Positions 23,213 through 54,900 of a stretch of DNA of 64,000 nucleotides are shown here, in pieces. Position numbers and translations under genes: made by a program. The notes under the pieces were generated by a model. It was given only the letters and a program-made list of their open reading frames with translations, was not told where the DNA came from and searched no databases. Each line of letters opens with the position of its first letter. Positions within the stretch are counted from its first letter, which is position 1. Source of the DNA: a phage; sequence record PZ445521.1; one strand, written 5' to 3'.

Positions 23213-23220
23213 TTTGTGTT

Positions 23221-23274
23221 CCTCATGTTATGTCAGTAAGACTACTATAACACAACACGAGGGACTTGTAAACT
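23221..23274 (-). promoter_or_regulatory. T4-type early promoter plus leader, copy 1 of a 54-nt repeat
   Basis: minus strand GTTTAC, 18-nt spacer, TATAGT, then GAGG RBS; 53/54 identical to 38623-38676. Confidence 0.7.
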
Positions 23275-25330
23275 ACATCTTGAACTTTTTAGACATTCCG
23301 TTGATGTTAACCAAAGAAGCCAAGATTTGAGAAACTTCGTTTTCCTCTTCTTTTGATTCTTCTACAAGGAATTGATTAAATCCAGCCATTGGACGAACTT
23401 CACCAGTTTCCATTAAATGGTCGCCATCATATACTGATTCTTCTAATTGTTCAGAAGGAGGAACGATTGTACCTTCGATTAGATACTTGTTATAAGCAGT
23501 TTCTTTCATAAAGTACGTACTTACTTTATTAATCTTCAGTAAAATTCCACGCGGTAGAATAACTTCAGCTTCTGATGGAAATCCTGATAAATGACCTGGA
23601 ACGATAACTTTGATTCGCTCAGCTCCTTTAATTACCATACCCACGCTAGTTTCAGCATCTTCATTGGCATATGTAGAATGACTACCCATATGCATTAAAT
23701 CTTCTGCATCAACGGAACCTTCTCCTTCGCCAGAAAATACTGCGCCGGAATCATCTAGAGCCATATAGTTTTTACCATGCTCACCGAAGATATTTGGTTT
23801 AAGTGATGTCGATACGAAGTTCTTGAAATAGAACATTTTGTTTTCAATGTTATGACGCAAAGTTTTAAAGGTAACTTCTTGTCCACGGTAAAGTGTAGTT
23901 CCTGGAGGAAGAACTGATCCTTTGGCAAAGGCAGAATCTAACGTCTCGATGTGCTTAATAGCTCTTTCCATGTATTCTTCACGGGTAGAATCTGGTTTAC
24001 CCAAAAGGAACGAGTTCATTTCAACATATGAATCTGCACAATAATCTTCAATTACATCAGATTCAGCCTGAGTCAGTCCTTTTGGAGTTACTTCGGTGCT
24101 TGCGTATTCATATGCCTGAGCAGCAGATTCATTAATCAATTTATAAATGCCATTCATTACAAATTGAATAATAGCTGTCTTTTCATCTGATGCAGCTTTA
24201 GAACCTTTAACTAAATCATTGATAATTTTCTTAATAACATCAAAGCTATTAGAAATATTAATGTCAGCAAGATCGCTTAAAATTTTATCAGTTTTATAAT
24301 CAAAGAATTCTTTATTCTTTAAATATTCTTGAGAACCTTGATATGTTATATCGCTCTGCAGCTTGATAGATGGATCGCGTAAACGTGCATGGGCTAATGC
24401 AATATGATTTCGGAAACTTTCTAGTTCATAATCATTAGATTTAAAACGAGAAGCACTTCTCATACCACCGATAGCTCCTTTGCTGAAGTTTGAACCAATC
24501 TGGATAACGCCAGAGTTCATTGGTCCTTCTGCTTTGTATACCGGAACTTTAGATTCAAACTCTTGATATTTCTTGGCAGCGAAGCTATCGCCTTGAAGTG
24601 AAGCATCGACAGTAGAATATTGAGCTTGTGCTGCTAATCGACGACTAATTTTAGTTTTTTGAATAACCGCTTGATCAGTACGTTTATCATTTTCCAAAGC
24701 AATAGAAGCAGCAACTGCGACAGCTTTAGGAACAGCATTACCTGTTTTAACGTCTACATAAACATCACCGACCTTTGATTCAACTTTTGTGAATAGCTCT
24801 GTTGAAATAGGAGGTACACCTGGAATGTCTTCTAAATTGGCATTTTTACGGTAAACCATAATATATGCATACTTTTTATCATAGTCCCAGATTTCCTTTA
24901 AAAGAACATATCGACCTGCTCCTTTAGTACGCACTAAACGGTCAGCAATAACTTGCATTTGACGAGCAGCGCCATTTGTTTTACTCTTTAGTACGCGGAA
25001 TAGGCATGCGTCAATTTTATACTGCTTCATTGTTTGAAGAGCAGTATCAAAAACAGCGTTAATGACGCCAATTGGATTTCCACCCAAGTTTTTAAGCTTA
25101 ACCAGCGATAATTTCTCGTTGACACCTATCATTACGATATGCATCATTTTATCGCCTGGCTTAACGTTTTTATTTGTATCACCACCTGAGGTGTATGTAC
25201 AAAATCTAAATCCAGGAAGCACGCTTTCTTCACCGGCTTGAATAGCAAAAATTTGTGGTATTTTATGCTTAGGATTTAAGTTAACAACCGGCGCCGAAGC
25301 GCCGTCAAATAATTCTGTAATAAGTTCCAT
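23273..25330 (-). CDS. Alt-family ADP-ribosyltransferase paralog (copy A)
   Basis: 685 aa; N-terminal about 220 aa highly similar to copy B; ART-like YRGQ, FVSTSL and SEAEVILP motifs. Confidence 0.85.
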   Translation of the reverse strand: MELITELFDGASAPVVNLNPKHKIPQIFAIQAGEESVLPGFRFCTYTSGGDTNKNVKPGDKMMHIVMIGVNEKLSLVKLKNLGGNPIGVINAVFDTALQTMKQYKIDACLFRVLKSKTNGAARQMQVIADRLVRTKGAGRYVLLKEIWDYDKKYAYIMVYRKNANLEDIPGVPPISTELFTKVESKVGDVYVDVKTGNAVPKAVAVAASIALENDKRTDQAVIQKTKISRRLAAQAQYSTVDASLQGDSFAAKKYQEFESKVPVYKAEGPMNSGVIQIGSNFSKGAIGGMRSASRFKSNDYELESFRNHIALAHARLRDPSIKLQSDITYQGSQEYLKNKEFFDYKTDKILSDLADINISNSFDVIKKIINDLVKGSKAASDEKTAIIQFVMNGIYKLINESAAQAYEYASTEVTPKGLTQAESDVIEDYCADSYVEMNSFLLGKPDSTREEYMERAIKHIETLDSAFAKGSVLPPGTTLYRGQEVTFKTLRHNIENKMFYFKNFVSTSLKPNIFGEHGKNYMALDDSGAVFSGEGEGSVDAEDLMHMGSHSTYANEDAETSVGMVIKGAERIKVIVPGHLSGFPSEAEVILPRGILLKINKVSTYFMKETAYNKYLIEGTIVPPSEQLEESVYDGDHLMETGEVRPMAGFNQFLVEESKEEENEVSQILASLVNINGMSKKFKM

Positions 25331-25333
25331 GAT

Positions 25334-27430
25334 TTATCCTTGAACGAACTTGTAAGGCATGTTTGTAATATCTATGCAAGACGCAATAATTCCAAGAGAT
25401 GATTCTACTTTCTGTTTAACGTTTGATGAAACAAATGATGCAAAGTCAACTCTGTCTTCTATTTCAATATCACCTGTCATTGCAACCAATTCACCAGTTT
25501 CCATTAAATGGTCTCCATCATAGATTACCGATTCGGTGAGCTCTTCCGTGGTCATAACTTCAGCTTGAATGAGTTTTGTATTATTAGATGTTGTTCCGTC
25601 ATTATTAGAAGCATCAGTTATTTTATTAACTTTGACCATCAATCCACGCGGTAGAATAACTTCAGCTTCTGTTGCTATTCCGAGACTTCCTGGATATACA
25701 ACATTAACTTTATGAGCTCCATCAATTGCCCATCCTATTTGAACTTTAACGTATTCAGGATTTTCTTTATACGCTCTTATTTCGTTTGGATTAATAGTTA
25801 TTCCTTCTTCATTTTTATCAACTGTTAATTCATTGCGAGCTTCTGGTTCTAAAAGACCAATACCAGCATGTGTAATTCCAAAACGTCCAAAAATGATAGG
25901 AGTTAAAGAAGTAGATACAAAATTTCTGAAGTAGAACACTTTATTTTTAACTAACGCTTCATATATAGGAGCAGTCATACTTTGAGCACGATAAACTGTA
26001 ATGCCTTCTGGTATACGGTCACCATTTTCAAAAGCTGAATCTAAGTTATTTATAGCAGATTCAATTTCTTTTTCACTCATTACATCATATCGTTCTGGAT
26101 TGTAACGACCTAAAAGAAGATTATTGATGTCAGTATATCCTGAACCGCAATATTCTCTAATGCCACGCTTTTGTGATGGAGTATATTTAGAACCATCGCG
26201 GGCAATAGTAATATCAATCATTGGACCAGCACCAATTCCAGAAAAACTGTAAATCATTCGTTTGAGGAATTTAGTTTTTGCTGCGTTCCAGGAATTTTTA
26301 GTTATTTCTTCCCAGACTTCATCTGGTTGTCCTTTACGATTTTTATTATGATTAGCAAGCCATTTATCTTTATAATCTTCAAAGAATTGATTTACAGCTG
26401 CTGCGTATTTCTCTAAACATTTTATTGAAGTAGTTGGTTCATTTTTAATTGCATTAAAAATTACTTCTTTAATTTTTTCTGAAACTTCACCGACCCGACT
26501 CAGCGGAAAGAATTTATAATCATAGTGAAGTTCATCTGCCGTTCCTTCAGCAATAATTTTTGCTGCCTTTGTTTTAGAAGCTAATGAATTAATTCCAATT
26601 TTCATTTCTTCTGCTTCGGGAATTAAAGGTGCAGTAGCTGGTTTATTAAAATTAGCTGCTGTAGATTCATACTTCTGGAATAATTCACTTTCAAATCTAG
26701 AAGATTCCAATGACTGACTTTGTGCAATTGCTCTACGGGAAATTTTAACTTTAACGATTACGGCTTGGTCAGAACGTTTATCATTTTCTTGTGCAATTGA
26801 TGCTGCAATTGCTTCATTTTTAGTTACCTGATTTCCGGTATCTTTGTTGATATAAACATCACCAACCTTCGATTCAACCTTAGTAAAGAGTTCAGTACTA
26901 ATTTCTGGAACTCCTGGAATGTCTTCTAGTGATACGTTTTTACGATGTATAAGAATATATGCATACTTTTTATCGTAATCCCAGAGTTCCTTAAGAAGGA
27001 CGTATCTGCCACCTGAACGACTACGGATAAGTCTATCAGCAATAAGTTGAATTTGTCGAGCTTGACCGGCGGTTTTAGACTTAAGAATGCGTAGCATACA
27101 TGCATCAATTTTATACTGACGCATAGTTTGCATTGCAACGGTAAATACTGAATTGATGTAATTAATAGGACTCGGTCCAAGACCCTTTAATTTAGCAATT
27201 GACCCCTTTGCAGTTAATGTAAAAGGAACGATATGCATCATTTTATCGCCCATTTTTAAATCGCGATTAGTATCACCTCCAGATGTATAGGTACATAAAC
27301 GAAAGCCTGGTTGTTCAATTGCATCATCAACATGAACTGAAAAAATTTGTGGTATTTTCTTCTTTGGATTTAAGTTTGTAATCGGAAGAGTAGTATCTTC
27401 GTCAAATAATTCTGTAATGAGTTCCATCAT
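25334..27430 (-). CDS. alt: Alt ADP-ribosyltransferase (copy B, the one matching my memory of T4 Alt)
   Basis: 697-698 aa (two adjacent Met codons); YRAQ, FVSTSL and TEAEVILP motifs. Confidence 0.88.
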   Translation of the reverse strand: MMELITELFDEDTTLPITNLNPKKKIPQIFSVHVDDAIEQPGFRLCTYTSGGDTNRDLKMGDKMMHIVPFTLTAKGSIAKLKGLGPSPINYINSVFTVAMQTMRQYKIDACMLRILKSKTAGQARQIQLIADRLIRSRSGGRYVLLKELWDYDKKYAYILIHRKNVSLEDIPGVPEISTELFTKVESKVGDVYINKDTGNQVTKNEAIAASIAQENDKRSDQAVIVKVKISRRAIAQSQSLESSRFESELFQKYESTAANFNKPATAPLIPEAEEMKIGINSLASKTKAAKIIAEGTADELHYDYKFFPLSRVGEVSEKIKEVIFNAIKNEPTTSIKCLEKYAAAVNQFFEDYKDKWLANHNKNRKGQPDEVWEEITKNSWNAAKTKFLKRMIYSFSGIGAGPMIDITIARDGSKYTPSQKRGIREYCGSGYTDINNLLLGRYNPERYDVMSEKEIESAINNLDSAFENGDRIPEGITVYRAQSMTAPIYEALVKNKVFYFRNFVSTSLTPIIFGRFGITHAGIGLLEPEARNELTVDKNEEGITINPNEIRAYKENPEYVKVQIGWAIDGAHKVNVVYPGSLGIATEAEVILPRGLMVKVNKITDASNNDGTTSNNTKLIQAEVMTTEELTESVIYDGDHLMETGELVAMTGDIEIEDRVDFASFVSSNVKQKVESSLGIIASCIDITNMPYKFVQG

Positions 27431-27464: not shown

Positions 27465-27482
27465 AAGGCCCGAAGGCCTTTA
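27465..27482 (-). terminator. hairpin overlapping stop of the 62-aa ORF
   Basis: aaaggcccgaaggccttt read directly. Confidence 0.5.
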
Positions 27483-30902: not shown

Positions 30903-31096
30903 ACTAATTCCTTTAATCCGTAAATAGGAGATAATTCATCACCCATACGAAGGTCTTCATTTCCATCTACCCAGGAAACAATATAAGCCTCTTTTATTTG
31001 AACACCACTCCATTTAAATGGAGGTAGAACCTTAGAAATTAATCCAGGTATACCAACTCCCTTTAATTCAACAGTTTGACCTAAAAAGAATTTCAT
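30899..31096 (-). CDS. hypothetical protein (30.x region)
   Basis: 65 aa ORF, start-stop overlap. Confidence 0.5.
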   Translation of the reverse strand: MKFFLGQTVELKGVGIPGLISKVLPPFKWSGVQIKEAYIVSWVDGNEDLRMGDELSPIYGLKELV

Positions 31097-31419
31097 TAGA
31101 ACCTCATCTGAAAGCCGTGTGATTTAACATTACCACCGCCAATATCAGAAATGTTAATTTCACTCGCAATTGAAGGGTCAATGTCAATTTCACGATTGAG
31201 TTTAGTGATAGCTAAAGTATCACGCCCATTTACTGTACGGAATTCTAAAGGACAAACCACATCAACGTAATTTTTAATCGATTCACTGGTAGGTTGCAAA
31301 TGAGCAGGAAGGTCTTTGGGCGCCTTTGAGAAAACCACTTCACAGAAATTTTTGCGGGTGTCAAAATAAGTAGTCATAAACATAATATTTTCCTCAGTAA
31401 GGGGGCCAAAGCCCCTCAT
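31096..31419 (-). CDS. hypothetical protein (30.x region)
   Basis: 107 aa ORF. Confidence 0.55.
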   Translation of the reverse strand: MRGFGPLTEENIMFMTTYFDTRKNFCEVVFSKAPKDLPAHLQPTSESIKNYVDVVCPLEFRTVNGRDTLAITKLNREIDIDPSIASEINISDIGGGNVKSHGFQMRF

Positions 31420-31424
31420 TTATT

Positions 31425-31790
31425 TTAAATATCAAATTCGTTAAGAACTACATCAAAGATTGCTTCAAGATGCTCAGGTTTAGCTCTGTTACTCAGAATA
31501 TGACGAATCCAAGTTTTAACCAAAAGCTTGCGATTAGCACCATTCCAACAAGGATGAGTCCCTAAATCGCGTTGACGAAAATCATCATCCAGAGCGATTT
31601 TAAAGTTGGAACCTTCCATTGTGATTGAAACCGTGATGCCATTTTCAAATCGCATATAAACGTAATTAGGAGTCATATACTGTTCAATTTCGCATACTGA
31701 TCCATTTTGATGTTTCCAAAGGCAAATAGTATCAATAGAACCTGCAATACCATTAGAAACATATTTACGTTCAAAGTTGATGTAGTTCAT
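31425..31790 (-). CDS. hypothetical protein (30.x region)
   Basis: 121 aa ORF; early promoter just upstream. Confidence 0.6.
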   Translation of the reverse strand: MNYINFERKYVSNGIAGSIDTICLWKHQNGSVCEIEQYMTPNYVYMRFENGITVSITMEGSNFKIALDDDFRQRDLGTHPCWNGANRKLLVKTWIRHILSNRAKPEHLEAIFDVVLNEFDI

Positions 31791-31816
31791 TTTTGTTCTC
31801 CGAGATGTTTAATTGC

Positions 31817-31856
31817 GGTACAGGTATATAATATCATATCCTGTACCAAAGTAAAC
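31817..31856 (-). promoter_or_regulatory. early promoter with hairpin in the spacer
   Basis: minus GTTTAC, 17 nt, TATTAT; 8-bp inverted repeat ggtacagg/cctgtacc. Confidence 0.6.
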
Positions 31857-31860
31857 TATT

Positions 31861-32229
31861 TTATGCAACTTTAATCCAATTATCTAAATTTAATTCACCT
31901 TTGGCTTTCATTTTTTCAATCAAGAGGTCAGCGGTAATACGACCATTTTGATACCACGTAACATCTTCAGAGTAACCAGTTTCTTTATCTTCATAAGTCT
32001 CACAGCGAATTTTACCAAGAATCAAAGTTTTTAATTCATATGTATCTCCAGTAAAAAAGTTAGTTAACATTATTTTCCAAGAGAAATCATCAGAAGGACC
32101 TTCAGGAGTCATACAATCTACAAATTCAAATTGTTCTTTATATAAATGCCACTGAAGTTCTTTAGTTTCGATAGCTTTATAGCCGTCGTGATCTTTACCT
32201 TTGATGTATGAGTTAAGATTGATTTTCAT
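31861..32229 (-). CDS. hypothetical protein (30.x region)
   Basis: 122 aa ORF. Confidence 0.6.
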   Translation of the reverse strand: MKINLNSYIKGKDHDGYKAIETKELQWHLYKEQFEFVDCMTPEGPSDDFSWKIMLTNFFTGDTYELKTLILGKIRCETYEDKETGYSEDVTWYQNGRITADLLIEKMKAKGELNLDNWIKVA

Positions 32230-32315
32230 TTTATTCTCCTTTGTTTGTGTAAAATAATACTATCACAAAGGAACCATACTGTAAACAACTTTGTGCAATC
32301 TTTGGAAAATAAAAA

Positions 32316-32335
32316 AGGACTCCCGAAGGAGTCCT
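32316..32335 (-). terminator. rho-independent terminator
   Basis: hairpin aggactcccgaaggagtcct, T tract on minus strand. Confidence 0.7.
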
Positions 32336-32339
32336 CAAC

Positions 32340-32558
32340 TTATGCTTTCTGCTTACCAAAACGAGAAGCATCATCTCGAAGAACCGCACGTGCTCGGCGC
32401 ATGATCTTCTCAACAGTTTGATTGATACGAGAGTTCGACCCACGCTTGTAACCAGCGCGTTTAGAATCACCAACTTTCTTTTCAACTGCTTTCTTTGCTT
32501 TAACTTGTTTTGCCATTATAAATTCTCTTTTAAATGAAAATGCAGGACTTATTGGCAT
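32340..32558 (-). CDS. small highly basic protein; sits at the rIII position by synteny but not confirmed
   Basis: 58-72 aa (likely start MAKQVKAKK), Lys/Arg-rich. Confidence 0.5.
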   Translation of the reverse strand: MPISPAFSFKREFIMAKQVKAKKAVEKKVGDSKRAGYKRGSNSRINQTVEKIMRRARAVLRDDASRFGKQKA

Positions 32559-32737
32559 TGCCTGCGCAAGCCCTCAAAGGGGTACTTAGGTTTTGAATAT
32601 TTACCGACAGGATAACCATAAACCTCGTCATCATACCACCAAGACTTACACAGATAACACTTTTCTGACGCATGATAGTAACATTCAAGAGGTACACCGT
32701 AAAACTGCCGGGGTCTTAAAACTATAATGATTCGCAA
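32549..32737 (-). CDS. hypothetical Cys/Tyr-rich small protein
   Basis: 62 aa ORF; weak. Confidence 0.35.
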   Translation of the reverse strand: MRIIIVLRPRQFYGVPLECYYHASEKCYLCKSWWYDDEVYGYPVGKYSKPKYPFEGLRRQCQ

Positions 32738-32805
32738 ATCATTAATCAGACAGTTCGACGGCTCCTCGTTTTAACTTCACACTAAGGCAGTGACTCTCCA
32801 ATAAA

Positions 32806-33054
32806 TTACTTCAGTGTTACCACAAAGTGACGAACTGCTTTTCGTGCAGCAGAAGCCAAAGGCTTAGCATATTTAAGTTCATCTTTTTCCTGAAGCTCAG
32901 CAGCTAATGCAGTTTGAGCAGGATTCAGATGTTTGAAATAACGCAGGATTTCAAGAGCTTCGGCTTCAACATCAATAGAAGCGCCATAGTTTTCGTGACC
33001 ATTATTCCATGCGTTTCGTTGCAGTTCAAGAGCGTGTTGTAATTGTTTAATCAT
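32806..33054 (-). CDS. hypothetical protein; 82 aa, the length I recall for T4 RIII (alternative rIII candidate)
   Basis: 82 aa ORF downstream of gene 31. Confidence 0.55.
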   Translation of the reverse strand: MIKQLQHALELQRNAWNNGHENYGASIDVEAEALEILRYFKHLNPAQTALAAELQEKDELKYAKPLASAARKAVRHFVVTLK

Positions 33055-33201
33055 TTAAAAATTCTCGTTAGAGATTAAAACTCGGTAGTCACGTTCTTCT
33101 GAATTTCATCTTCTTTCGACAGATCTCTCAGTTGTAGACTACCACATAGAATTGTTCGGTTAACTTATTATTCCGACACCCAATTCATATTATTATTTAT
33201 A

Positions 33202-33537
33202 TCACTTATAAAGACACGGAATAGCTTTATAGTGACAGGTAACGAATTTTTGTTTAATTTCTTTTGGCTGCTTAAGACCCAGAGCTACAAAAGGATGCGG
33301 AACATTTCGAATTTGACCAACTGGAAGAGAAGTCAAATCACCAACTTCGCAGAAACCTTCAGGAACATCAGGACCGACAGAGTGAACTACACACAGTTCA
33401 GGAACTTCACCTTGAACACGTTTACCGATGATAAGTCCTGATTCTGTAACTTCTTCATCACCGGCTTGTGCAGGTTCAGAAACTAAAATAACATATTCAC
33501 CGACAGCACGAATTGGTAGCTGTTGTACTTCAGACAT
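33202..33537 (-). CDS. 31: head assembly co-chaperonin gp31 (GroES-like)
   Basis: 111 aa as T4 gp31. Confidence 0.9.
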
Positions 33538-33593
33538 CGTTTTTCCTTTTTGTTAACAGATGAATTAATAATAACAAATAATTCTTAAAGCAT

Positions 33594-33902
33594 TTATTTA
33601 CCAATAAATTGAAGCAAATGCTCAGCTTTCATACCATTAACAGAAATCAATTTGTCAATAGAAAAACCTCGCCACTCGCCAAGCTCAACATCAAATACTG
33701 GAATCATATCAGTAGATTCTTTCCGAGCAGATTCAGTCAATTTACCAGTTTGCATGGTTGGCATAAAGTCCGCATCACGAGTGCCTTTCATAGTACGAAT
33801 AGTACCATCAGACTTTTCAAAAACTACGTTTGAAATACCCATGGACAATTTAGTTTTCAAAATTTCACGAATTGCTACTTTTTGTTCAGTCGTCAGTTTC
33901 AT
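33594..33902 (-). CDS. hypothetical protein (position of 31.1)
   Basis: 102 aa ORF. Confidence 0.6.
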   Translation of the reverse strand: MKLTTEQKVAIREILKTKLSMGISNVVFEKSDGTIRTMKGTRDADFMPTMQTGKLTESARKESTDMIPVFDVELGEWRGFSIDKLISVNGMKAEHLLQFIGK

Positions 33903-34139
33903 TTATTTACCTATTACAGTTTTAATATGAGTTGTTCCACGTTCTTTAAGAGTGGAAAGCAATTTTTGGCATTTTTCTAAATCAGATTTCCAACTATACG
34001 GCCTATCAATACAAACCCATTCTGACTTATAATACTGTTTCCATTTAGAGAAAAAATACTTCTTATACTCTACAGCAAATGAAATGTTCTCGTTAGAATA
34101 AGAACTAATTGCTGTGAGCTGTACCAAACGAAATTTCAT
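33903..34139 (-). CDS. hypothetical protein (position of 31.2)
   Basis: 78 aa ORF. Confidence 0.55.
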   Translation of the reverse strand: MKFRLVQLTAISSYSNENISFAVEYKKYFFSKWKQYYKSEWVCIDRPYSWKSDLEKCQKLLSTLKERGTTHIKTVIGK

Positions 34140-34720
34140 TATTCACCACAGAATTCGTTGATATTTTCCCAGTTTAACTTATTCAAGTTTTTCTTAGGAA
34201 CATTAAACACTTCAATACCTGCATTTCGCAGAATATCATCCCAGCCAGGTTTATTTTTATCGTATGTTTCACAATAAACCAGCTTTTTAATTCCAGATTG
34301 AGCTATCGCTTTTGCACAATCTGGGCAAGGAGAAAGTGTTACATACATAGTAGCACCTTCAATAGAAGAACCATTTCGTGCAGCAAACAAAATCGCATTT
34401 AGTTCAGCGTGAATTTCATTTTTAGACGACCATTCAGAGTGAGCGCTACGGTGTTCTTTCGCCAAGACAAAACGATCAGTTGAACCAAACGATACGCATT
34501 CAGGCTTATGACCTTGAATGATAGTATGTTTAGGCTTGTTCAACAACCAGCCTTGTTCAGCAGCATAATCACAGCAATTCACACCACCAGCAGGTGAACC
34601 ATTATATCCGGTAGAAATAATACGTCCATTCTTTTCAATTACTGCTCCTACCTTCCAGGAGCAGCATTTTGATTCTTGCGATACTAAATATGCAATTTGA
34701 AGTACTGTACTCGCTTTCAT
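34139..34720 (-). CDS. cd: dCMP deaminase
   Basis: 193 aa; zinc-ligand HAE and PCxxC motifs. Confidence 0.92.
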   Translation of the reverse strand: MKASTVLQIAYLVSQESKCCSWKVGAVIEKNGRIISTGYNGSPAGGVNCCDYAAEQGWLLNKPKHTIIQGHKPECVSFGSTDRFVLAKEHRSAHSEWSSKNEIHAELNAILFAARNGSSIEGATMYVTLSPCPDCAKAIAQSGIKKLVYCETYDKNKPGWDDILRNAGIEVFNVPKKNLNKLNWENINEFCGE

Positions 34721-35055
34721 TTCATAATCACCAGATAAGCAGATTTAGCAGTTTCTACACGATAAATTTCGTGACGAAGTTTAGTTATACTTTTAATAAC
34801 AGAACTAATTATATTCTGCCCATCTTTAAAGCGGTTTTTCTTATCAATAAAAATTGCGCCAACCAGCTTTTTGTGAAGCTCAACTGGATACTTCGTCACA
34901 ATAATAGCATCATACACAGAAGGATGAATACTATTCACTAGAGTGTCATTCATTAAAGTTATTCTAATGAACTGTGCTGTTTCAGAGTCAAGCGCTCTAT
35001 GATCGCCAGTATCATTTTCAAGACAATTATCAATTATATCAGTTAAATTCATCAT
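34717..35055 (-). CDS. hypothetical protein (cd.1 position)
   Basis: 112 aa. Confidence 0.6.
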   Translation of the reverse strand: MMNLTDIIDNCLENDTGDHRALDSETAQFIRITLMNDTLVNSIHPSVYDAIIVTKYPVELHKKLVGAIFIDKKNRFKDGQNIISSVIKSITKLRHEIYRVETAKSAYLVIMK

Positions 35056-35288
35056 AGTACGCCATACACCCTTTGTGCTTCAACTAATCCATCAAAATCC
35101 AATTTGAGATGTGTTATTTGGTCACCATCACCTGGATTCACAATTACTAATACTGAACGAGGAGTTTCGGTAATAACGCGAACCGATGTTTCTGGAAATC
35201 GTTCAGAAACCTTATTTACCAATTCCTGAGCAAATAGTTTAACTTTTTCTTGGAATTCTTTAACAGTAATTGGTTTTTCACTTAGCAT
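35052..35288 (-). CDS. hypothetical protein (cd.2 position)
   Basis: 78 aa. Confidence 0.55.
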   Translation of the reverse strand: MLSEKPITVKEFQEKVKLFAQELVNKVSERFPETSVRVITETPRSVLVIVNPGDGDQITHLKLDFDGLVEAQRVYGVL

Positions 35289-35318
35289 TTTGTTTTCCTC
35301 ATTTGTTTCGGTAGAGCT

Positions 35319-35348
35319 ATAATATCACAACTCTACCACAAAGTAAAC
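35319..35348 (-). promoter_or_regulatory. early promoter with hairpin in the spacer
   Basis: minus GTTTAC, about 18 nt, TATTAT; inverted repeat ggtagag/ctctacc. Confidence 0.6.
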
Positions 35349-35352
35349 TATA

Positions 35353-35628
35353 TTAAATTGCTTTGAATTCTGATGTCTGCGATTCAAAACGAATATCACC
35401 TTTGATGACTAACTCAGCGTCAAGACCGAATACGACAATGATATGCGCGGAACCTGGATACAGCGTAATGGCAATAGAATCCACCTGGTCTGGAAGCAAA
35501 GTGTTCAATACATGAGTCACTTGAGCATGAATTCGAAGCTCGGCTGCGTTATCAAGCTTTTCAAACATATTATTAGCAATAATTTGGCTAAACACTACTT
35601 CTACGATTTTAGAATAAGTCGGAAACAT
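35353..35628 (-). CDS. hypothetical protein (cd.3 position)
   Basis: 91 aa. Confidence 0.55.
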   Translation of the reverse strand: MFPTYSKIVEVVFSQIIANNMFEKLDNAAELRIHAQVTHVLNTLLPDQVDSIAITLYPGSAHIIVVFGLDAELVIKGDIRFESQTSEFKAI

Positions 35629-35630
35629 AT

Positions 35631-35823
35631 TTACCTCACATAATTTTCTTCAAGCCAATCAATAACATCTAACGCATTATCAAAAGTTGAACCATCTACT
35701 TTGTCTTCTGTTTCATAATCAAGAACATCTAAGCCTACTCTTCCATTAACAATAGGCCATAAACAAAATAAATATTTCTTTTCTTTTTCAATTTTATCAC
35801 AAAGTTGATAAATCTTTTCTATG

Positions 35824-35831
<8 letters not shown>
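35631..35831 (-). CDS. hypothetical protein (cd.4 position)
   Basis: 66 aa. Confidence 0.5.
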
Positions 35832-37246
<1,415 letters not shown>

Positions 37247-38617: not shown

Positions 38618-38622
38618 AAAGT

Positions 38623-38676
38623 CCTCATGTTATGTTAGTAAGACTACTATAACACAACACGAGGGACTTGTAAACA
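38623..38676 (-). promoter_or_regulatory. early promoter plus leader, copy 2 of the 54-nt repeat (upstream of alc)
   Basis: 53/54 identical to 23221-23274; GTTTAC, 18 nt, TATAGT, GAGG RBS. Confidence 0.7.
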
Positions 38677-38678
38677 AC

Positions 38679-40266
<1,588 letters not shown>

Positions 40267-40293: not shown

Positions 40294-41472
40294 TTAAAAG
40301 TATTTTTTAAAACTCATCATAACTTTATCATCAACATCATTATCAATCTGTGCAACAAGGTAAGATGACAGTTCTACTTCTTGTGGCGCGGATTGAACAT
40401 TATCAGAATTAAGATATTCACGAATCCAAGGATATGGATGTTTAACCGGAGCATCGGTAATCGGGCATGGAAGACCACAATGTTTCATACGAGATACAGT
40501 TAAGTAATCAATAAAGCTCCACATGCTATTTGTATTTAATCCAGGAACATCGCCATCTTTAAATAAATGAACTGCCCAATCTTTTTCTTGGCGGTTAACT
40601 TCCATGAAAATATCAACTGCTTCTTGTTCACACTCTTGAGCAATTTTAACCCATTCATCGCCATCAGTGCCAAGTTGAAGTTGACGAATAATATATTGAG
40701 TGCCTTTAAGGTGAAGCTGCTCATCACGTGCAATGAACTTCATAATCTTGGCATTACCTTCCATGATTTCCATGTTCTTATGGAAGTTAAAGGTACATGC
40801 GAAAGATACATAAAAACGAATAGCTTCCAATGCGTTGATTACATGCAAACAGAGGTAAAGAGATTTCATTAGCTCATGCTTCCAATACGTCTCATGCTCA
40901 ATAGCATCTTCAATAACGTCTTCGTCTGCATTAATTTCTTTTTGGTATTCGATATCAGCTTTAGCGTTTTCCCAATAACGAGTTTTAATCAGAACATCAT
41001 CATAATAACGTCCAATGGATTCAGCACGTTTCATAATAGCTTCATCTAATACAATTTCATCAAATACCTTCGATGGATCAGTATAAAGATTTCGCATGAT
41101 ATGTGTATATGAACGGCTGTGAATAGTTTCACTAAAAGTCCACGTAGCAACCCATGTATCAAGGCTTGGGTCTGAAATTAATGACATAAGTACAGCAGAC
41201 GGCGCACGACCCTGAATGCTATCCAAAAGTGATTGATACTTCAGGTTATTAGTAAAAATATTCTGCTGATACTGAGGAAGTTTATTAAATTGTGCAGCAT
41301 CCATCATCAAGTTTACTTCTTCAGGACGCCAGAAAAATGATAATTGCTTTTCAGTCAAATCTTCAAAAACTTTATGGCGTTGAATATCATAACGCGCAAT
41401 ACCAAGACCTGAACCGAAGAACATAGGTTCTTTTAAAACATCAACTGGATTTGTATTAAAAACTGTGCTCAT
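40294..41472 (-). CDS. nrdB: ribonucleotide reductase small subunit, uninterrupted
   Basis: 392 aa continuous ORF with ferritin-like ligands and C-terminal F. Confidence 0.92.
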   Translation of the reverse strand: MSTVFNTNPVDVLKEPMFFGSGLGIARYDIQRHKVFEDLTEKQLSFFWRPEEVNLMMDAAQFNKLPQYQQNIFTNNLKYQSLLDSIQGRAPSAVLMSLISDPSLDTWVATWTFSETIHSRSYTHIMRNLYTDPSKVFDEIVLDEAIMKRAESIGRYYDDVLIKTRYWENAKADIEYQKEINADEDVIEDAIEHETYWKHELMKSLYLCLHVINALEAIRFYVSFACTFNFHKNMEIMEGNAKIMKFIARDEQLHLKGTQYIIRQLQLGTDGDEWVKIAQECEQEAVDIFMEVNRQEKDWAVHLFKDGDVPGLNTNSMWSFIDYLTVSRMKHCGLPCPITDAPVKHPYPWIREYLNSDNVQSAPQEVELSSYLVAQIDNDVDDKVMMSFKKYF

Positions 41473-41523
41473 AAATTTTCCGCTTAGTTAATAGTTGGTG
41501 ACTCGTCCGTGAGTCAAATTATA

Positions 41524-43788
41524 TCATAATTTACAGGATGAACAATCTTCAGCTTTTGGAGTTTCTATTTCATAATCATCAGTACCAGAACCATCGCGGG
41601 TATTATGATAATAGAAATTTTTTCCGCCAAAATACCAAAAATACAAAAGGTCATCAATCATTATTGACATTGGAACCTTGCCTTTAGGGAAGATTTGGGG
41701 GTCATAGTATGTATTCGCCGAAGCTGATTGACAAACCCATTTCAGCATAATAGCTACCTGCGTAAGATAAGGTTTATTACCTTTCTTAGCTAATTTCCAT
41801 GTATAGTCGTAAAGGTCTATGTTATGCTCAATATTGGGCACGACTTGATTAAAGGAGCCCTCTTTTGATTCTTTAACAGAGACTGGTCCACGTGGAGGCT
41901 CGATACCGTTTGTACTGTTAGAAACTTGGGAAGATGACTCACATGGCATAAGTGCTGATAATGTGCTATTACGGATGCCAAAGAGCTTAAGGTCTTCCCG
42001 CAGCGACGACCAGTCACAAACGTATTTTGGAGCTGCGATTTGGTCAATCTTTTTATTGTACCAGTCGATAGGTAATTCGCCTCGAGACCAACGAGTGTCT
42101 GAATAATATTCGCAAGGTCCTTTTTCTTTGGCGAGCTTAATGGATGCTTTAATGAGTCCATACTGTAATCTCTCAAATAGTTCATGTGTTAAATCGTTAG
42201 CATCTTCATAAGAAGCAAAGTTACTTGCCAGCCAAGCTGCATAGTTAGTAACACCTACACCAAGGTTTCGACGCTTTTTAGCTTTTTCTGCTTCAGGAAC
42301 TGGATATCCTTGGTAATCCAAAAGATTATCAAGAGCACGAACTTGAACTTCTGCCAATTCATTAATTTTATCTTGGTCTTGCCAATCAAAGTTATCCAGC
42401 ACAAATGCAGATAATGTACACAATCCAATTTCAGCATCAGGACTATTCACATCATTTGTTGGAATAGCAATTTCACAGCACAAGTTGCTCTGACGAATAG
42501 GTGCCTTTTCACGAATAAATGGCGTATAGTTATTCGTATTATCAATGAACTGCACATAAATCCTTGCTGTTCCTGAGCGTTCAGTCATGAGCAATTCAAA
42601 TAGTTCACGGGCTTTAATGCGCTTTTTACGAATATTAGGGTCTTTTTCTGCTGCTTCGTATAATTCACGGAAACGGTCTTGGTCTTTAAAATAAGAATAA
42701 TAAAGCTCGCCACCCATTTCATGCGGACTGAACAAAGTAATGTAATCATTCTTTCCAAAACGTTCCATCATTAGATCATTCAGTTGAACACCATAATCCA
42801 TATGACGGATACGGTTTTCTTCTACACCTTTGTTATTTTTCAAAACGAGAAGATTTTCAACTTCCAAATGCCAAATAGGATAATAAGCAGTAGCAGCGCC
42901 GCCACGAATTCCACCCTGTGAGCATGATTTAACAGCAGTCTGAAAATGTTTCCAAAAAGGAATAACACCAGTATGGCGTACTTCACCCATGCCAATCTTA
43001 GAACCTTCGGCACGAATCATACCAACGTTAATACCAATTCCAGCGCGTTTGGAGATATATTCAACAATTGAAGCAGAAGCCTTATTGATAGACTTTAATG
43101 AATCACCTGCCTCAATAACAACGCATGAACTAAACTGCCGAGTTGGAGTACGGCAACCAGCCATAATAGGAGTTGGTAATGAAATCTGTCGAGTAGATAC
43201 TGCTTCATAAAAACGAATAACGTGTTTTAATCTATCAACAGGTTCATCTTGATGCAATGCCATTCCAATAGTCATAAATGCAAACTGTGGAGTTTCATAA
43301 ATTTGACCAGTGGTTTTATCTTTAACTAGATATTTTTCTTTTAATTGCATCGCCCCGGAATAAGTAAATTCCATATCCCGCTCATGCTTAATTTTTGATT
43401 CTAAAAATGTAATTTCTTCGGCAGAATATTTTGACAACAGTTCAGGGTCATATTTACCTTCATTTACACAGTAAGAAATATGGTCAATAAATGAACGTGG
43501 TTCATACTGCCCGTAAACATGCTTACGAAGAGCGAACATTAAACAGCGTGCAGCTACATATTGGTAATCAGGCTCTTCAACTGAAATAGAATTCGCAGCA
43601 GCCTTAATTACAATGGTTTGAATGTCATCAGTGGTCATTCCATCACGGAGATATGATTTAATATTTTCATATAATTCATAAGGATCTACAGATGTTCCTT
43701 CAGCTGCCCAAGATAAAACTTTAATAATTTTTTGCGGGTCAAAGCTCTGAGAAACACCACTACTTTTGATAACATTAATTAATTGCAT
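41524..43788 (-). CDS. nrdA: ribonucleotide reductase large subunit
   Basis: 754 aa; ATP-cone N-terminus, active-site Cys motifs, C-terminal CSSCKL. Confidence 0.95.
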   Translation of the reverse strand: MQLINVIKSSGVSQSFDPQKIIKVLSWAAEGTSVDPYELYENIKSYLRDGMTTDDIQTIVIKAAANSISVEEPDYQYVAARCLMFALRKHVYGQYEPRSFIDHISYCVNEGKYDPELLSKYSAEEITFLESKIKHERDMEFTYSGAMQLKEKYLVKDKTTGQIYETPQFAFMTIGMALHQDEPVDRLKHVIRFYEAVSTRQISLPTPIMAGCRTPTRQFSSCVVIEAGDSLKSINKASASIVEYISKRAGIGINVGMIRAEGSKIGMGEVRHTGVIPFWKHFQTAVKSCSQGGIRGGAATAYYPIWHLEVENLLVLKNNKGVEENRIRHMDYGVQLNDLMMERFGKNDYITLFSPHEMGGELYYSYFKDQDRFRELYEAAEKDPNIRKKRIKARELFELLMTERSGTARIYVQFIDNTNNYTPFIREKAPIRQSNLCCEIAIPTNDVNSPDAEIGLCTLSAFVLDNFDWQDQDKINELAEVQVRALDNLLDYQGYPVPEAEKAKKRRNLGVGVTNYAAWLASNFASYEDANDLTHELFERLQYGLIKASIKLAKEKGPCEYYSDTRWSRGELPIDWYNKKIDQIAAPKYVCDWSSLREDLKLFGIRNSTLSALMPCESSSQVSNSTNGIEPPRGPVSVKESKEGSFNQVVPNIEHNIDLYDYTWKLAKKGNKPYLTQVAIMLKWVCQSASANTYYDPQIFPKGKVPMSIMIDDLLYFWYFGGKNFYYHNTRDGSGTDDYEIETPKAEDCSSCKL

Positions 43789-47015: not shown

Positions 47016-47037
47016 TTTATTCTCCTCAAGTTGATAA

Positions 47038-47071
47038 GGCTATAGTATCATTACCATAGCCCGTTGTAAAC
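47038..47071 (-). promoter_or_regulatory. early promoter with hairpin in the spacer
   Basis: minus GTTTAC, 18 nt, TACTAT; inverted repeat ggctat/atagcc. Confidence 0.55.
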
Positions 47072-47073
47072 AA

Positions 47074-47376
47074 TTATTTTTGAATTTTATCGAGCCACTT
47101 ACCAGGCTTAATCATTTCTTTAGTAGCCTTTTCCATACTTCTGAACTTGACCAATAGAGGATAGGTATCGACACCCATAACTAAACTGGTTACAAGACTG
47201 TGTTCACCTACAAGCCATAACGAATACGTTTGAATACCGAGCCCGTAATTTCTGTCTTTATGGACCCGTACACCCATCACTTCAAATTTCTCACTAGCTT
47301 TTTCTACCGCATCCAGGAAATCATCTTTAGTCATATTAGGCCTTAAAAGTTTTTCGCAAAAGTTCAATGATTTCAT
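47074..47376 (-). CDS. hypothetical protein
   Basis: 100 aa. Confidence 0.55.
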   Translation of the reverse strand: MKSLNFCEKLLRPNMTKDDFLDAVEKASEKFEVMGVRVHKDRNYGLGIQTYSLWLVGEHSLVTSLVMGVDTYPLLVKFRSMEKATKEMIKPGKWLDKIQK

Positions 47377-47760: not shown

Positions 47761-48012
47761 TTATTGTTCAATCAGTCCCATGTAAAATTCTGCGTCTTCA
47801 GAATCCATGCCGTCACAATACTCATTAGCCATAAAGCGGGTGAGGTCTTCAAGAGGACCTTCAATGACAATAGAAAAATTGCAATAATTGGGATCATCGT
47901 GAATACTTGTGATACTAAGCTCAGGATAACGATTACGAATAATTTCTTCAATATATTCAAAATCAACGATGTCAATATCAACTTTAGCCATATTATTTTC
48001 CTCTTTAATCAT
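47761..48012 (-). CDS. hypothetical acidic protein
   Basis: 83 aa; preferred over the overlapping alternate-frame ORF at 47772-47981. Confidence 0.5.
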
Positions 48013-48034
48013 CAGCAGTATTGCCGATAGTTGT

Positions 48035-48064
48035 ATAGTACCACAGTCCTTGTGGTATGTAAAC
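48035..48064 (-). promoter_or_regulatory. early promoter with hairpin in the spacer
   Basis: minus GTTTAC, 18 nt, TACTAT; inverted repeat taccaca/tgtggta. Confidence 0.55.
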
Positions 48065-48095: not shown

Positions 48096-48114
48096 GGGGA
48101 CCCTAGAGGTCCCC
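48096..48114 (-). terminator. rho-independent terminator after gene 32
   Basis: hairpin ggggaccctagaggtcccc, T tract on minus strand. Confidence 0.75.
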
Positions 48115-51919: not shown

Positions 51920-51950
51920 TATTATATACCATCCGAATCTTAAAGTAAAC
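51920..51950 (-). promoter_or_regulatory. early promoter upstream of rnh
   Basis: minus GTTTAC, 18 nt, TATAAT. Confidence 0.55.
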
Positions 51951-51995: not shown

Positions 51996-54900
51996 ATGGC
52001 CGAGATTAAAAGAAAGTTCAGAGCAGAAGATGGTCTGGACGCAGGTGGCGATAAAATAATCAACGTAGCTTTAGCTGATCGTACCGTAGGAACTGACGGT
52101 GTTAACGTTGATTACTTAATTCAAGAAAACACAGTTCAACAATATGATCCAACTCGTGGATATTTAAAAGATTTTGTAATCATTTATGATAACCGCTTTT
52201 GGGCTGCTATAAATGATATTCCAAAACCAGCAGGAGCTTTTAATAGCGGACGCTGGAGAGCATTACGTACAGATGCTAACTGGATTACGGTTTCATCTGG
52301 TTCATATCAATTAAAATCTGGTGAAGCAATTTCGGTTAACACTGCAGCTGGAAATGACATTACGTTTACTTTACCATCTTCTCCAATTGATGGCGATACT
52401 ATCGTTCTCCAAGATATTGGAGGAAAACCTGGAGTTAACCAAGTTTTAATTGTAGCTCCAGTGCAAAGTATTGTAAACTTTAGAGGTGAACAGGTACGTT
52501 CAGTACTAATGACTCATCCAAAGTCACAGCTAGTTTTAATTTTTAGTAATCGTCTGTGGCAAATGTATGTTGCTGATTATAGTAGAGAAGCTGTAATTGT
52601 AACACCAGCGAATACTTATCAAGCGCAATCAAATGATTTTATCGTACGTAGATTTACTTCTGCTGCACCAATTAATGTTAAACTTCCAAGATTTGCTAAT
52701 CATGGCGATATTATTAATTTCGTTGATTTAGATAAACTGAATCCACTTTATCATACAATTGTTACTACATACGATGAAACGACTTCAGTACAAGAAGTTG
52801 GAACTCATTCCATTGAAGGCCGTACATCGATTGACGGTTTCTTGATGTTTGATGATAATGAGAAATTGTGGAGATTGTTTGACGGGGATAGTAAAGCACG
52901 TTTACGCATTATAACGACTAATTCTAATATTCGTCCAAACGAAGAAGTTATGGTATTTGGTGCGAATAACGGAACAACTCAAACAATTGAGCTTCAGCTT
53001 CCAACTAATATTTCTGTTGGTGATACTGTTAAAATTTCCATGAATTACATGAGAAAAGGACAAACAGTTAAAATCAAAGCTGCCGGTGAAGATAAAATTG
53101 CTTCTTCAGTTCAATTGCTGCAATTCCCAAAACGTTCAGAATATCCGCCTGAAACTAAATGGGTAACTGTTCAAGAATTAGTTTTTAACGGTGAAACTAA
53201 TTATGTTCCAGTTTTACAGCTTGCTTATATAGAAGATTCTGATGGAAAATACTGGGTTGTACAGCAAAACGTTCCAACTGTAGAAAGAGTAGACTCTTTA
53301 AATGATTCTACTAGAGCAAGATTAGGCGTAATTGCTTTAGCTACACAGGCTCAAGCTAACGTCGATTTAGAAAATTCTCCACAAAAAGAATTAGCAATTA
53401 CTCCAGAAACATTAGCTAACCGTACTGCTACAGAAACTCGTAGAGGTATCGCAAGAATAGCAACTACTGCTCAAGTGAATCAGAACACCACATTCTCTTT
53501 TGCAGATGACCTTATCATCACTCCTAAAAAGCTGAATGAAAGAACAGCTACTGAAACTCGCAGAGGTGTTGCTGAAATTGCTACGCAGCAAGAAACTAAT
53601 ACAGGAACCGATGATACTACAATCATCACTCCTAAAAAGCTTCAAGCTCGTCAAGGTTCTGAATCATTATCTGGTATTGTAACTTTTGTATCTACTGCAG
53701 GTGCTACTCCAGCTTCTAGCCGTGAATTAAATGGTACGAATGTTTATAATAAAAACACTAATAATTTAGTTGTTTCACCTAAAGCTTTGGATCAGTATAA
53801 AGCTACTCCAACACAGCAAGGTGCAGTAATTTTAGCAGTTGAAAGTGAAGTAATTGCTGGACAAAGTCAGGAAGGATGGGCAAATGCGGTTGTAACGCCA
53901 GAAACGTTACATAAAAAGACATCAACTGATGCAAGAATTGGTTTAATTGAAATTGCTACGCAAAGTGAAGTTAATACAGGAACTGATTATACTCGTGCAG
54001 TCACTCCTAAAACTTTAAATGACCGTAGAGCAACTGAAAGTTTAAGTGGTATAGCTGAAATTGCTACACAGGTTGAATTCGACGCAGGCGTCGACGATAC
54101 TCGTATCTCTACACCATTAAAAATTAAAACCAGATTTAATAGTACTGATCGTACTTCTGTTGTTGCTCTATCTGGATTAGTTGAATCAGGAACTCTCTGG
54201 GACCATTATACCCTTAATATTCTTGAAGCAAATGAGACACAGCGTGGTACACTTCGTGTAGCTACACAGGTCGAAGCTGCTGCAGGAACATTAGATAATG
54301 TTTTAATAACTCCTAAAAAGCTTTTAGGTACTAAATCTACCGAATCGCAAGAAGGTGTTATTAAAGTTGCAACTCAGTCTGAAACTGTAGCTGGAACGTC
54401 AGCAAATACTGCTGTATCTCCAAAAAATTTAAAATGGATTGCGCAGAGTGAACCAACTTGGGCAGCTACTACTGCGATAAGGGGCTTTGTTAAAACTTCA
54501 TCTGGTTCAATTACATTCGTTGGTAATGATACAGTCGGTTCTACCCAAGATTTAGAACTGTATGAGAAAAATAGCTATGCGGTATCACCATATGAATTAA
54601 ACCGTGTATTAGCAAATTATTTACCGTTAAAAGCAAAAGCTGCTGATACAAATTTATTGGATGGTCTAGATTCATCTCAGTTCATTCGTAGGGATATTGC
54701 ACAGACGGTTAATGGTTCACTAACCTTAACCCAACAAACGAATCTGAGTGCCCCTCTTGTATCATCTAGTACTGCTACGTTTGGTGGTTCAGTTTCGGCA
54801 AATAGTACATTAACTATTTCTAATACTGGAACTGCAACTCGTCTGATTTTTGAGAAAGGACCTCAAACTGGAACTAACCCAGCACAGACGATGACTATTA

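Follow-up and report, generated by a model that had tools for sequence, protein, structure and literature searches.

The closest described relatives of the sites analyzed here are the promoter-early stem-loops (PeSLs), which combine a strong sigma-70-like promoter with a stem-loop and were described in phages phi1 and RB49 (Arbiol 2010, PMC2839356). PeSLs fit tightly into the space from a stop codon to the following ribosome-binding site, and the stem in phi1/RB49 lies mostly between the -35 and -10 elements or overlaps the -10 element; one phi1 stem-loop cut lacZ like rrnB T1 (PMC2839356). In T4 and PST, the PeSL consensus is TTTACW-N17-TAYWAT (Comeau 2014, PMC4122927). A second comparable system is found in the T4 genes e, soc, 49, and I-TevI, in which hairpins hide the ribosome-binding site (RBS) and an internal late promoter frees the RBS only in locally started RNA (PMC3014915).

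The window, that is, the whole stretch of DNA that was analyzed, comprises 64,000 nucleotides (PZ445521.1). Over bases 31000-36000, it matches Shigella phage JK38 (MK962755.1, genus Tequatrovirus), a T4 relative, at 100% identity, and about 500 T4-like genomes align with the same stretch at 95-99%. A position in the window equals the record position minus 95626. The minus strand carries the early genes, from about 22.9 to 52 kb. Four intergenic regions on this strand are the subject of this study: 30.8/30.7 (site 1, 70 nt), cd.3/cd.2 (site 2, 64 nt), JK38_00231/frd.1 (site 3, 58 nt), and gene 32/frd.3 (site 4, 145 nt). The A+T content of the 20 nt 5' of the -35 element is 76-86% at the four sites. 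Both the site 1 and the site 2 promoter are also present in T4, whose record gives the orthologue of the latter the name 'early promoter Pe133295 between cd.2 and cd.3'. The literature yielded no usable T4 transcript-end maps or named promoters for these sites, and Rfam gave no family match in the whole window. The upstream neighbour of site 3, JK38_00231, is absent from T4; it is an extra ORF that JK38 has at 47074-47334, between frd.2 and frd.1. At the same locus, T4 has a different promoter/hairpin (AGGGTAGTAGT/ACTATTACCCT) and then an unannotated 22-codon ORF, and the JK38/T4 indel lies directly at the promoter/hairpin unit.

By their elements, the four sites are T4-type early (sigma-70) promoters (Table 1). 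A previous sequence-only reading had placed a GTTTAC and a -10 hexamer with a spacer of 17-18 nt on the minus strand, and this proved correct at all four sites. The -10 hexamer is TAYTAT and is directly preceded by TGn in every case. The window contains ten matches to GTTTAC-N17/18-TANNNT, all of them on the minus strand. Shuffled sequences contained 1.78 matches on average and none of 100 shuffles reached ten, corresponding to a 5.6-fold enrichment. As a separate observation, a GTTTAC-N18-TACAAT at 52449-52478 (minus) lies antisense within the long tail fibre gene 34 and is probably due to chance.

Table 1. Positions of the promoter elements, hairpins, and terminator discussed in the text.
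Feature	Position	Strand	Sequence or description
Site 1 -35 GTTTAC	31856-31851	minus	4 nt 3' of 30.8 TAA stop (31863-31861)
Site 1 -10 TATTAT	31833-31828	minus	TGA before it (extended -10); 17-nt spacer
Site 1 hairpin	31817..31847	minus	GGTACAGG(AUAUG) ... (UAUAU)A-CCTGTACC
Site 2 -35 GTTTAC	35348-35343	minus	4 nt 3' of cd.3 TAA stop
Site 2 -10 TATTAT	35324-35319	minus	TGA before it; 18-nt spacer
Site 2 hairpin	35310..35337	minus	12 bp, GGUAGAGUUGUG / UAUAGCUCUACC; loop AUAU spans -10 start
Site 3 -35 GTTTAC	47071-47066	minus	2 nt 3' of JK38_00231 TAA stop
Site 3 -10 TACTAT	47047-47042	minus	TGA before it; 18-nt spacer
Site 3 hairpin	47037..47062	minus	11 bp, GGGCUAUGGUA / UACUAUAGCCU, loop AUGA
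Site 4 -35 GTTTAC	48064-48059	minus	72 nt 3' of gene 32 stop
Site 4 -10 TACTAT	48040-48035	minus	TGTGG before it; 18-nt spacer
Site 4 hairpin	48039..48057	minus	TACCACA-aggac-TGTGGTA, 7 bp
Second hairpin	48010..48029	minus	frd.3 5' leader, downstream of site 4 promoter
Gene 32 canonical intrinsic terminator	48096..48114	minus	GGGGACC-TCT-AGGGTCCCC + T-run; upstream of site 4 promoter
rnlA/alc early promoter	38619..38675	minus	Spacer AAGTCCCTCGTGTT pairs with alc SD region AACATGAGGACTT
alt/96-aa ORF promoter-hairpin	23218..23273	minus	Near-identical copy of the 38675 cassette

At sites 1-3, the hairpin has its 5' arm in the spacer and its apex where TGA meets TA, and the -10 element together with the next 4-11 nt makes up the 3' arm. 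At site 1, the 3' arm is formed by the end of the -10 element plus 11 nt, and at site 3 it takes in the entire -10 hexamer. These stems are 11-13 bp long when G-U pairs are counted, and that of site 1 can be extended to 31856-31807, about 21 bp, through pairing of the -35 GUUUA with a downstream UAAAC. The site 4 hairpin is located within the spacer and overlaps the first TA of the -10 element. The sequence-only reading had proposed 6-8-bp repeats inside the spacers, immediately after the upstream stop codon. The stem length was underestimated at sites 1-3, and the location within the spacer applies to site 4, since on recount the 3' arms of sites 1-3 turned out to be the -10 element and the discriminator. 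Conversely, the position directly after the stop codon applies to sites 1-3 (2-4 nt) and not to site 4, which stands behind the gene 32 terminator.

Folding of the four regions, which the same reading had proposed, supported the hairpins at sites 1-3. On the earlier coordinates, the energies were -14.5, -14.8, and -14.4 kcal/mol for sites 1, 2, and 3 (z -4.09, -4.31, and -4.80, respectively), and at each of them none of 200 shuffles was as stable; another folding of site 1 reached -19.2 kcal/mol (z -5.24, 0/200 shuffles). Site 4 was unremarkable when taken alone: its hairpin is weak (-8.1 kcal/mol, z -1.47), and 17 of 200 shuffles were as stable. The 7-bp stem of this site was reached by none of 300 mononucleotide shuffles of the spacer. 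Overall, the hairpin z-scores ranged from -3.3 to -5.2. As a background, 300 random 61-nt sense-strand windows were folded, of which 5.7% reached -14.7 kcal/mol, 2.3% reached z<-3.3, and 9% reached z<-2. The comparison with other early promoters of the genome, which had also been suggested, showed that the four cases are not the only ones. The promoters at 23273 (-23.0 kcal/mol, z -4.92) and 38675 (-24.4 kcal/mol, z -5.67) have stronger hairpins and that at 32286 has a weak one, while folding gave no hairpin at 51950 and 63327. The Shine-Dalgarno (SD) sequence and the AUG are unpaired in the folds of sites 1, 3, and 4. The minimum-energy fold of site 2 includes a weak outer helix touching GAGG; this helix has G-U pairs at three places, and the centroid retains only part of it. 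Judged from folding together with the comparison across genera described below, the hairpins at sites 1-3 are real and evolutionarily maintained.

The four sites are members of the published PeSL class, and the element class is therefore already known. Each of the four reads GTTTAC(W), 16-17 further nt, and TAYTAT; each has a stop codon upstream, an SD and a start codon downstream, and an A+T-rich stretch before the -35 element; and a stem-loop is present, stable at sites 1-3 and weak at site 4. An association with indels and repeated cassettes may be a further likeness to PeSLs. There are also some differences. The stems of the PST PeSLs are drawn just upstream of the promoter (Comeau 2014, PMC4122927), whereas three of the four stems here span the -10 element. 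The stems of the four sites are of mixed sequence rather than polyG/polyC. In addition, terminator activity has been demonstrated for one phi1 stem but never for a T4-type stem.

The resemblance to T4 e, soc, 49, and I-TevI lies in the promoter being situated in the region of the 5' arm, such that local RNA lacks the arm and only read-through RNA folds. The predicted geometry of sites 1-3, with a start about 7 nt after the -10 element, likewise leaves locally initiated RNA without the 5' arm. However, the T4 genes use late promoters and their hairpins hide the SD/AUG, whereas the four sites are early promoters and their 3' arm is not the RBS. The layout of e, soc, 49, and I-TevI is instead that of the promoters at 23273 and 38675 (and their orthologues, five lineages), where the 3' arm falls on the SD. 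Stable intercistronic hairpins of T4 mRNAs, like the REP-type 3' stabilisers of bacteria, have no U-run and are thought to define stable RNA ends; C(UUCG)G hairpins were reportedly described by Tuerk et al. in 1988. Hairpins of this kind are short, G+C-rich, closed by a tetraloop, and stand-alone, whereas the hairpins described here are superimposed on a promoter. Stand-alone intercistronic hairpins are found in the window at 27482, 31427, 40296, and 47763. One of these regions, 31381-31427 between 30.7 and 30.6, contains the hairpin GGGGC-tttg-GCCCC, whose T-run (31401-31416, a call of the terminator scan) is confined to the plus strand, and it would therefore terminate antisense, not early-sense, transcription.

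In order to compare the sites across phages, 63 GTTTAC-type early promoters, each followed by an SD and an ORF, were collected from nine genomes of eight genera. JK38 was compared with T4 and with phages of Gaprivervirus, Dhakavirus, Mosigvirus (two phages), Gelderlandvirus, Marfavirus, and Karamvirus. Annotated phage genomes were preferred because the IMG/VR relatives of 30.7 and cd.2 comprised 14 and 5 loci, respectively, with little divergence. A hairpin was present in 37 of the 39 distinct promoters located <=15 nt from a co-directional upstream stop codon, versus 2 of the 20 others (Fisher, nominal P of 5e-11). Among the 37 stop-abutting hairpins, 27 span the -10 element and 10 are short hairpins within the spacer. 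Either a stand-alone terminator or a long gap precedes the 20 remaining promoters. Of these, site 4 and one other carry a hairpin; site 4 breaks the context rule, as the terminator upstream of it is a real one, and its hairpin is weak. The middle-promoter-like intergenic regions at 33596 and 45227 also abut stop codons and gave no hairpin on folding, which speaks for a specificity of the hairpins to early promoters, and the idea that a hairpin is required at every cistron end was rejected on this ground. The hairpin thus occurs where the early promoter takes up the space that a separate stem-loop would need, which suggests that its role is exerted on the incoming transcript.

The hairpins adopt three layouts. 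In the first, represented by sites 1-3, they span the -10 element. In the second, represented by the site 4 family, they are located within the spacer and show the motif ACCACA-aGGA-TGTGGTA, whose 3' arm is the TRTGn extended -10 and which recurs in several genera; members of this family made up 10 of 56 spacers at P<=0.05. In the third, represented by the promoters 23273 and 38675, the spacer pairs with the SD region of the next gene. At the 30.7 locus, the layout differs among genera. A possible middle-promoter version (PmSL-like) was noticed before denA at 39801-39858 (minus), which reads TGCTTCCACAtggagTGTGGTACTAT and has a MotA-box-like TGCTT followed by the site 4 motif CCACA-N5-TGTGG-TACTAT; its fold is weak (z +0.85). 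Another region of interest is 41470-41526 (minus), where the nrdA stop codon overlaps TGATATAAT (extended -10-like), directly followed by the hairpin TGACTC-acggac-GAGTCA (-8.4 kcal/mol, z -2.2), with no GTTTAC upstream.

The third layout was found at two loci in the window as parts of a 57-nt direct repeat with 96% identity (23220-23276 and 38622-38678, minus), which includes the promoter, the hairpin, and the SD. The genes that follow the two copies, alc and the 96-aa ORF after alt, are unrelated, and other genera have different promoters at the alc and post-alt loci. This distribution suggests a cassette conversion in the T4/JK38 lineage. Next to the first copy, two tandem paralogous ADP-ribosyltransferase (alt-like) genes are located at 23273-25330 and 25334-27430, and repeat families 2091-2097 nt apart with 73-94% identity were observed in these paralogues. 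Upstream of alc, pairing between the spacer and the SD was found in five lineages with differing sequences, 9-13 bp in each. The spacer/SD pairs are AAGTCCcTCGTGTT/AACATGAGGACTT, TCTCCTCAT/ATGAGGAGA, and ATCTCCGTTT/AAACGGAGAT, and those of the further lineages are CCTCGTTTGTT/AACAAACGAGG and TCTCCATTTGGTT/AACCAAATGGAGA. From these complementarities, the anti-SD pairing at alc looks like translation control by transcript origin, at an early promoter. As far as we found, neither the context rule nor the covarying anti-SD arms have been stated in the PeSL papers, and these are the points most worth following up.

The complementarity of the two halves was examined by a chimera test on the 63 promoters. 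The native halves averaged -13.2 kcal/mol, versus -8.8 kcal/mol for left/right chimeras, and for 19 promoters no chimera was as stable as the native sequence (Wilcoxon 1.8e-7, a P-value which, as in the comparative tests generally, is inflated by the partial orthology of the promoters). The chimeras keep the consensus yet fold worse, which shows that the complementarity does not simply follow from it. Covariation was analyzed with eight promoters whose hairpins span the -10 element and gave 85.7% paired cells versus 73.3% after shuffling (0/500), with the counts made in one register only and on sequences that were picked for folding and several of which are orthologues. In the same promoters, 8 of 14 pairs change on both sides, and slid controls gave 34-61%. 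One consensus structure for all promoters was rejected because the dyad axis varies between site families.

Individual sites illustrate how the arms change. The site 2 arms are GGTAGAGt/gCTCTACC in JK38 and T4, GGTAGGAC/GTCCTACC in Dhakavirus, and GTAGAGTT/AACTCTAC in Mosigvirus. Those of site 3 are GGGCTATGGTA/TACTATAGCCt in JK38 and GGGTTATGGT/ACTATAACCC in Gelderlandvirus, and in CF-SP2 a C-G pair of site 3 is replaced by U-A. The position of site 1 is stable across four genera; its outer stem does not vary among Tequatro-, Mosig-, and Gaprivervirus, and an inner A-U pair changes to U-G. The comparison across genera indicates that the arms fill the sequence-free parts of the promoter (the spacer, and the discriminator with the start-site region) and that they co-evolve. 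A strand-asymmetry test for an RNA-level role was set aside: the sense strand was more stable in 17 of 23 hairpins, but the count was 10 versus 11 after removal of the TRTGn and -10 consensus bases.

A peculiarity was observed in the loop of site 2. The 14 nt between the arms (T4 AF158101, 133300-133313) are exactly inverted in X03007.1 (2281-2356), a pseT clone of 1985, and the T4 record itself mentions an earlier report of this loop in inverted orientation. The clone was the only one of 695 matching records with the inverted loop (100%), and the others have the normal orientation. A natural flip switch of the -10 element was thus rejected. The inversion probably arose either from a gel-reading error or from an inverted-repeat flip that was selected when a strong promoter was cloned.

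The next question is what the hairpins do to the transcript that arrives from the upstream gene. Like intrinsic terminators, they are stable hairpins of the nascent RNA that form shortly after the stop codon, where the terminating ribosome no longer covers the transcript. They differ in that no U-run follows the hairpin at any of the four sites (0-3 T in the next 8 nt) and in that the terminator scan, which called the genuine terminators at 48114 and 32336, did not call any of the four. Because the U-tract is absent, the four hairpins are not canonical intrinsic terminators, and a classical intrinsic terminator was rejected on the basis of both observations. Workers on T4 take the early 3' ends that have been mapped to mark stable RNA, not sites of termination (PMC6024815), and the hairpin may therefore not stop the polymerase at all. 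It may stop the polymerase, attenuate it, or only provide a stable 3' end. Of the compact terminator-promoter unit proposed by the sequence-only reading, the coincidence of a hairpin of the incoming transcript with the next promoter is upheld by the covariation, the chimeras, and the context association, whereas the classical terminator is not.

We consider it rather probable that these early promoters with a selected stem-loop (PeSL) are boundary or insulator elements that act on the incoming transcript, rather than terminators of the hairpin-plus-U-tract type. The predicted start, about 7 nt 3' of the -10 element, would lie inside or after the 3' arm at sites 1-3. With such a geometry, RNA started at the promoter could not form the hairpin, and only read-through RNA could. 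The hairpin would then be a boundary to the read-through from the upstream gene, by attenuation and/or by providing a nuclease-resistant 3' end, and the downstream early gene would depend on its own promoter. At the sister promoters 23273 and 38675, the insulation would take place at the level of translation, by pairing of the spacer with the SD of the next gene. A more general proposal is that any stop-abutting early promoter in T4-like phages must carry an insulator hairpin in its sequence-free positions, the three layouts being interchangeable; we put this forward tentatively, as a possibility with less in its favor than against it.

Other explanations were weighed against the boundary on the incoming transcript. 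The symmetry might matter at the DNA level, in a recombination-prone cassette for gene shuffling (the 'modular shuffling' of PeSLs) or in cruciform or hairpin DNA, with the RNA fold being incidental. The outer stems are plain Watson-Crick palindromes with the same stability on both strands, the 57-nt cassette is duplicated before two unrelated genes, site 3 adjoins an ORF absent from T4, and in four IMG/VR contigs cd.2, whose product is 97-99% identical, has no site 2 promoter in front of it, and coding sequence reaches up to its start codon. The exact inversion of the 14-bp site 2 loop in the 1985 T4 clone could be read in the same way, but the inverted loop occurs in no sequenced genome among the matching records. 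Moreover, homologous recombination requires shared sequence and not dyad symmetry, and a DNA-level element leaves unexplained both the link of the hairpin to stop-abutting promoters and the use of the SD sequence as the 3' arm in several lineages. We regard this explanation as unlikely. The arms could alternatively have been selected for their effects on RNA polymerase, through spacer shape, TRTGn, or the G+C content of the discriminator, with the complementarity as a side effect. The 3' arm is indeed in the discriminator and G+C-rich at sites 1-3, that of site 4 is the TGTGG extended -10, and the UGUGA/UAUUAU part of the stem follows from the consensus bases alone. However, such tuning of the promoter accounts only for the inner consensus-derived pairs: chimeras with the same consensus lose 4.5 kcal/mol on average, two-sided changes keep the pairing, and promoters behind a terminator do without the arms. 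This explanation appears quite unlikely to us.

The sequence-only reading had named protein-binding sites as its alternative, and operators that bind a dimeric phage or host protein to shut off the early promoters would agree with a dyad symmetry centred on the -10 element, with the site 1 arms GGTACAGG/CCTGTACC that are invariant in four genera while their flanks diverge, and with the occurrence of the ACCACA-aGGA-TGTGGTA spacer motif in several genera. Yet the four sites have no common half-site (GGTACAGG, GGTAGAG, GGGCTAT, and TACCACA), the arms vary in length (7-14 bp) and in spacing (4-15 nt), the axis shifts by about 3 nt, and orthologues swap the arm sequence while the complementarity stays. 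Since complementarity is kept over sequence, protein binding is disfavoured, and we consider operators very improbable. Translational gating at the four sites themselves is highly improbable as well. The promoter lies between the arms as in the T4 late-promoter cases, spacer-SD pairing does occur at the neighbours 23273 and 38675 and in their orthologues, and the outer helix of site 2 touches GAGG; against this, the SD and AUG are unpaired at the other three sites, and the site 2 helix is the weak one with three G-U pairs that the centroid partly loses. Chance, or a by-product of the A+T-rich promoter consensus, could be invoked for the site 4 hairpin alone, which dinucleotide shuffles equalled in 17 of 200 cases, and in view of the frequency of z<-2 among the random sense-strand windows. 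The shuffles of sites 1-3, the chimera test, the covariation, and the context association are all contrary to it, and this explanation is largely refuted for sites 1-3 and barely credible overall.

The main result is that PeSL-type units are present and conserved in the T4 relative JK38. The comparison sharpens the description of these units, in that the hairpin is selected, is tied to promoters without room for a terminator, and is not a textbook terminator. If the boundary on the incoming transcript is the true function, it would explain how dozens of early genes are independently controlled in minimal intergenic space, and it would provide design rules for compact promoter/insulator parts. 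On the tentative general proposal above, the output of each early gene would be set by its own promoter alone, and the SD form would extend origin-dependent translation control from late promoters (e, soc, and I-TevI) to early genes such as alc.
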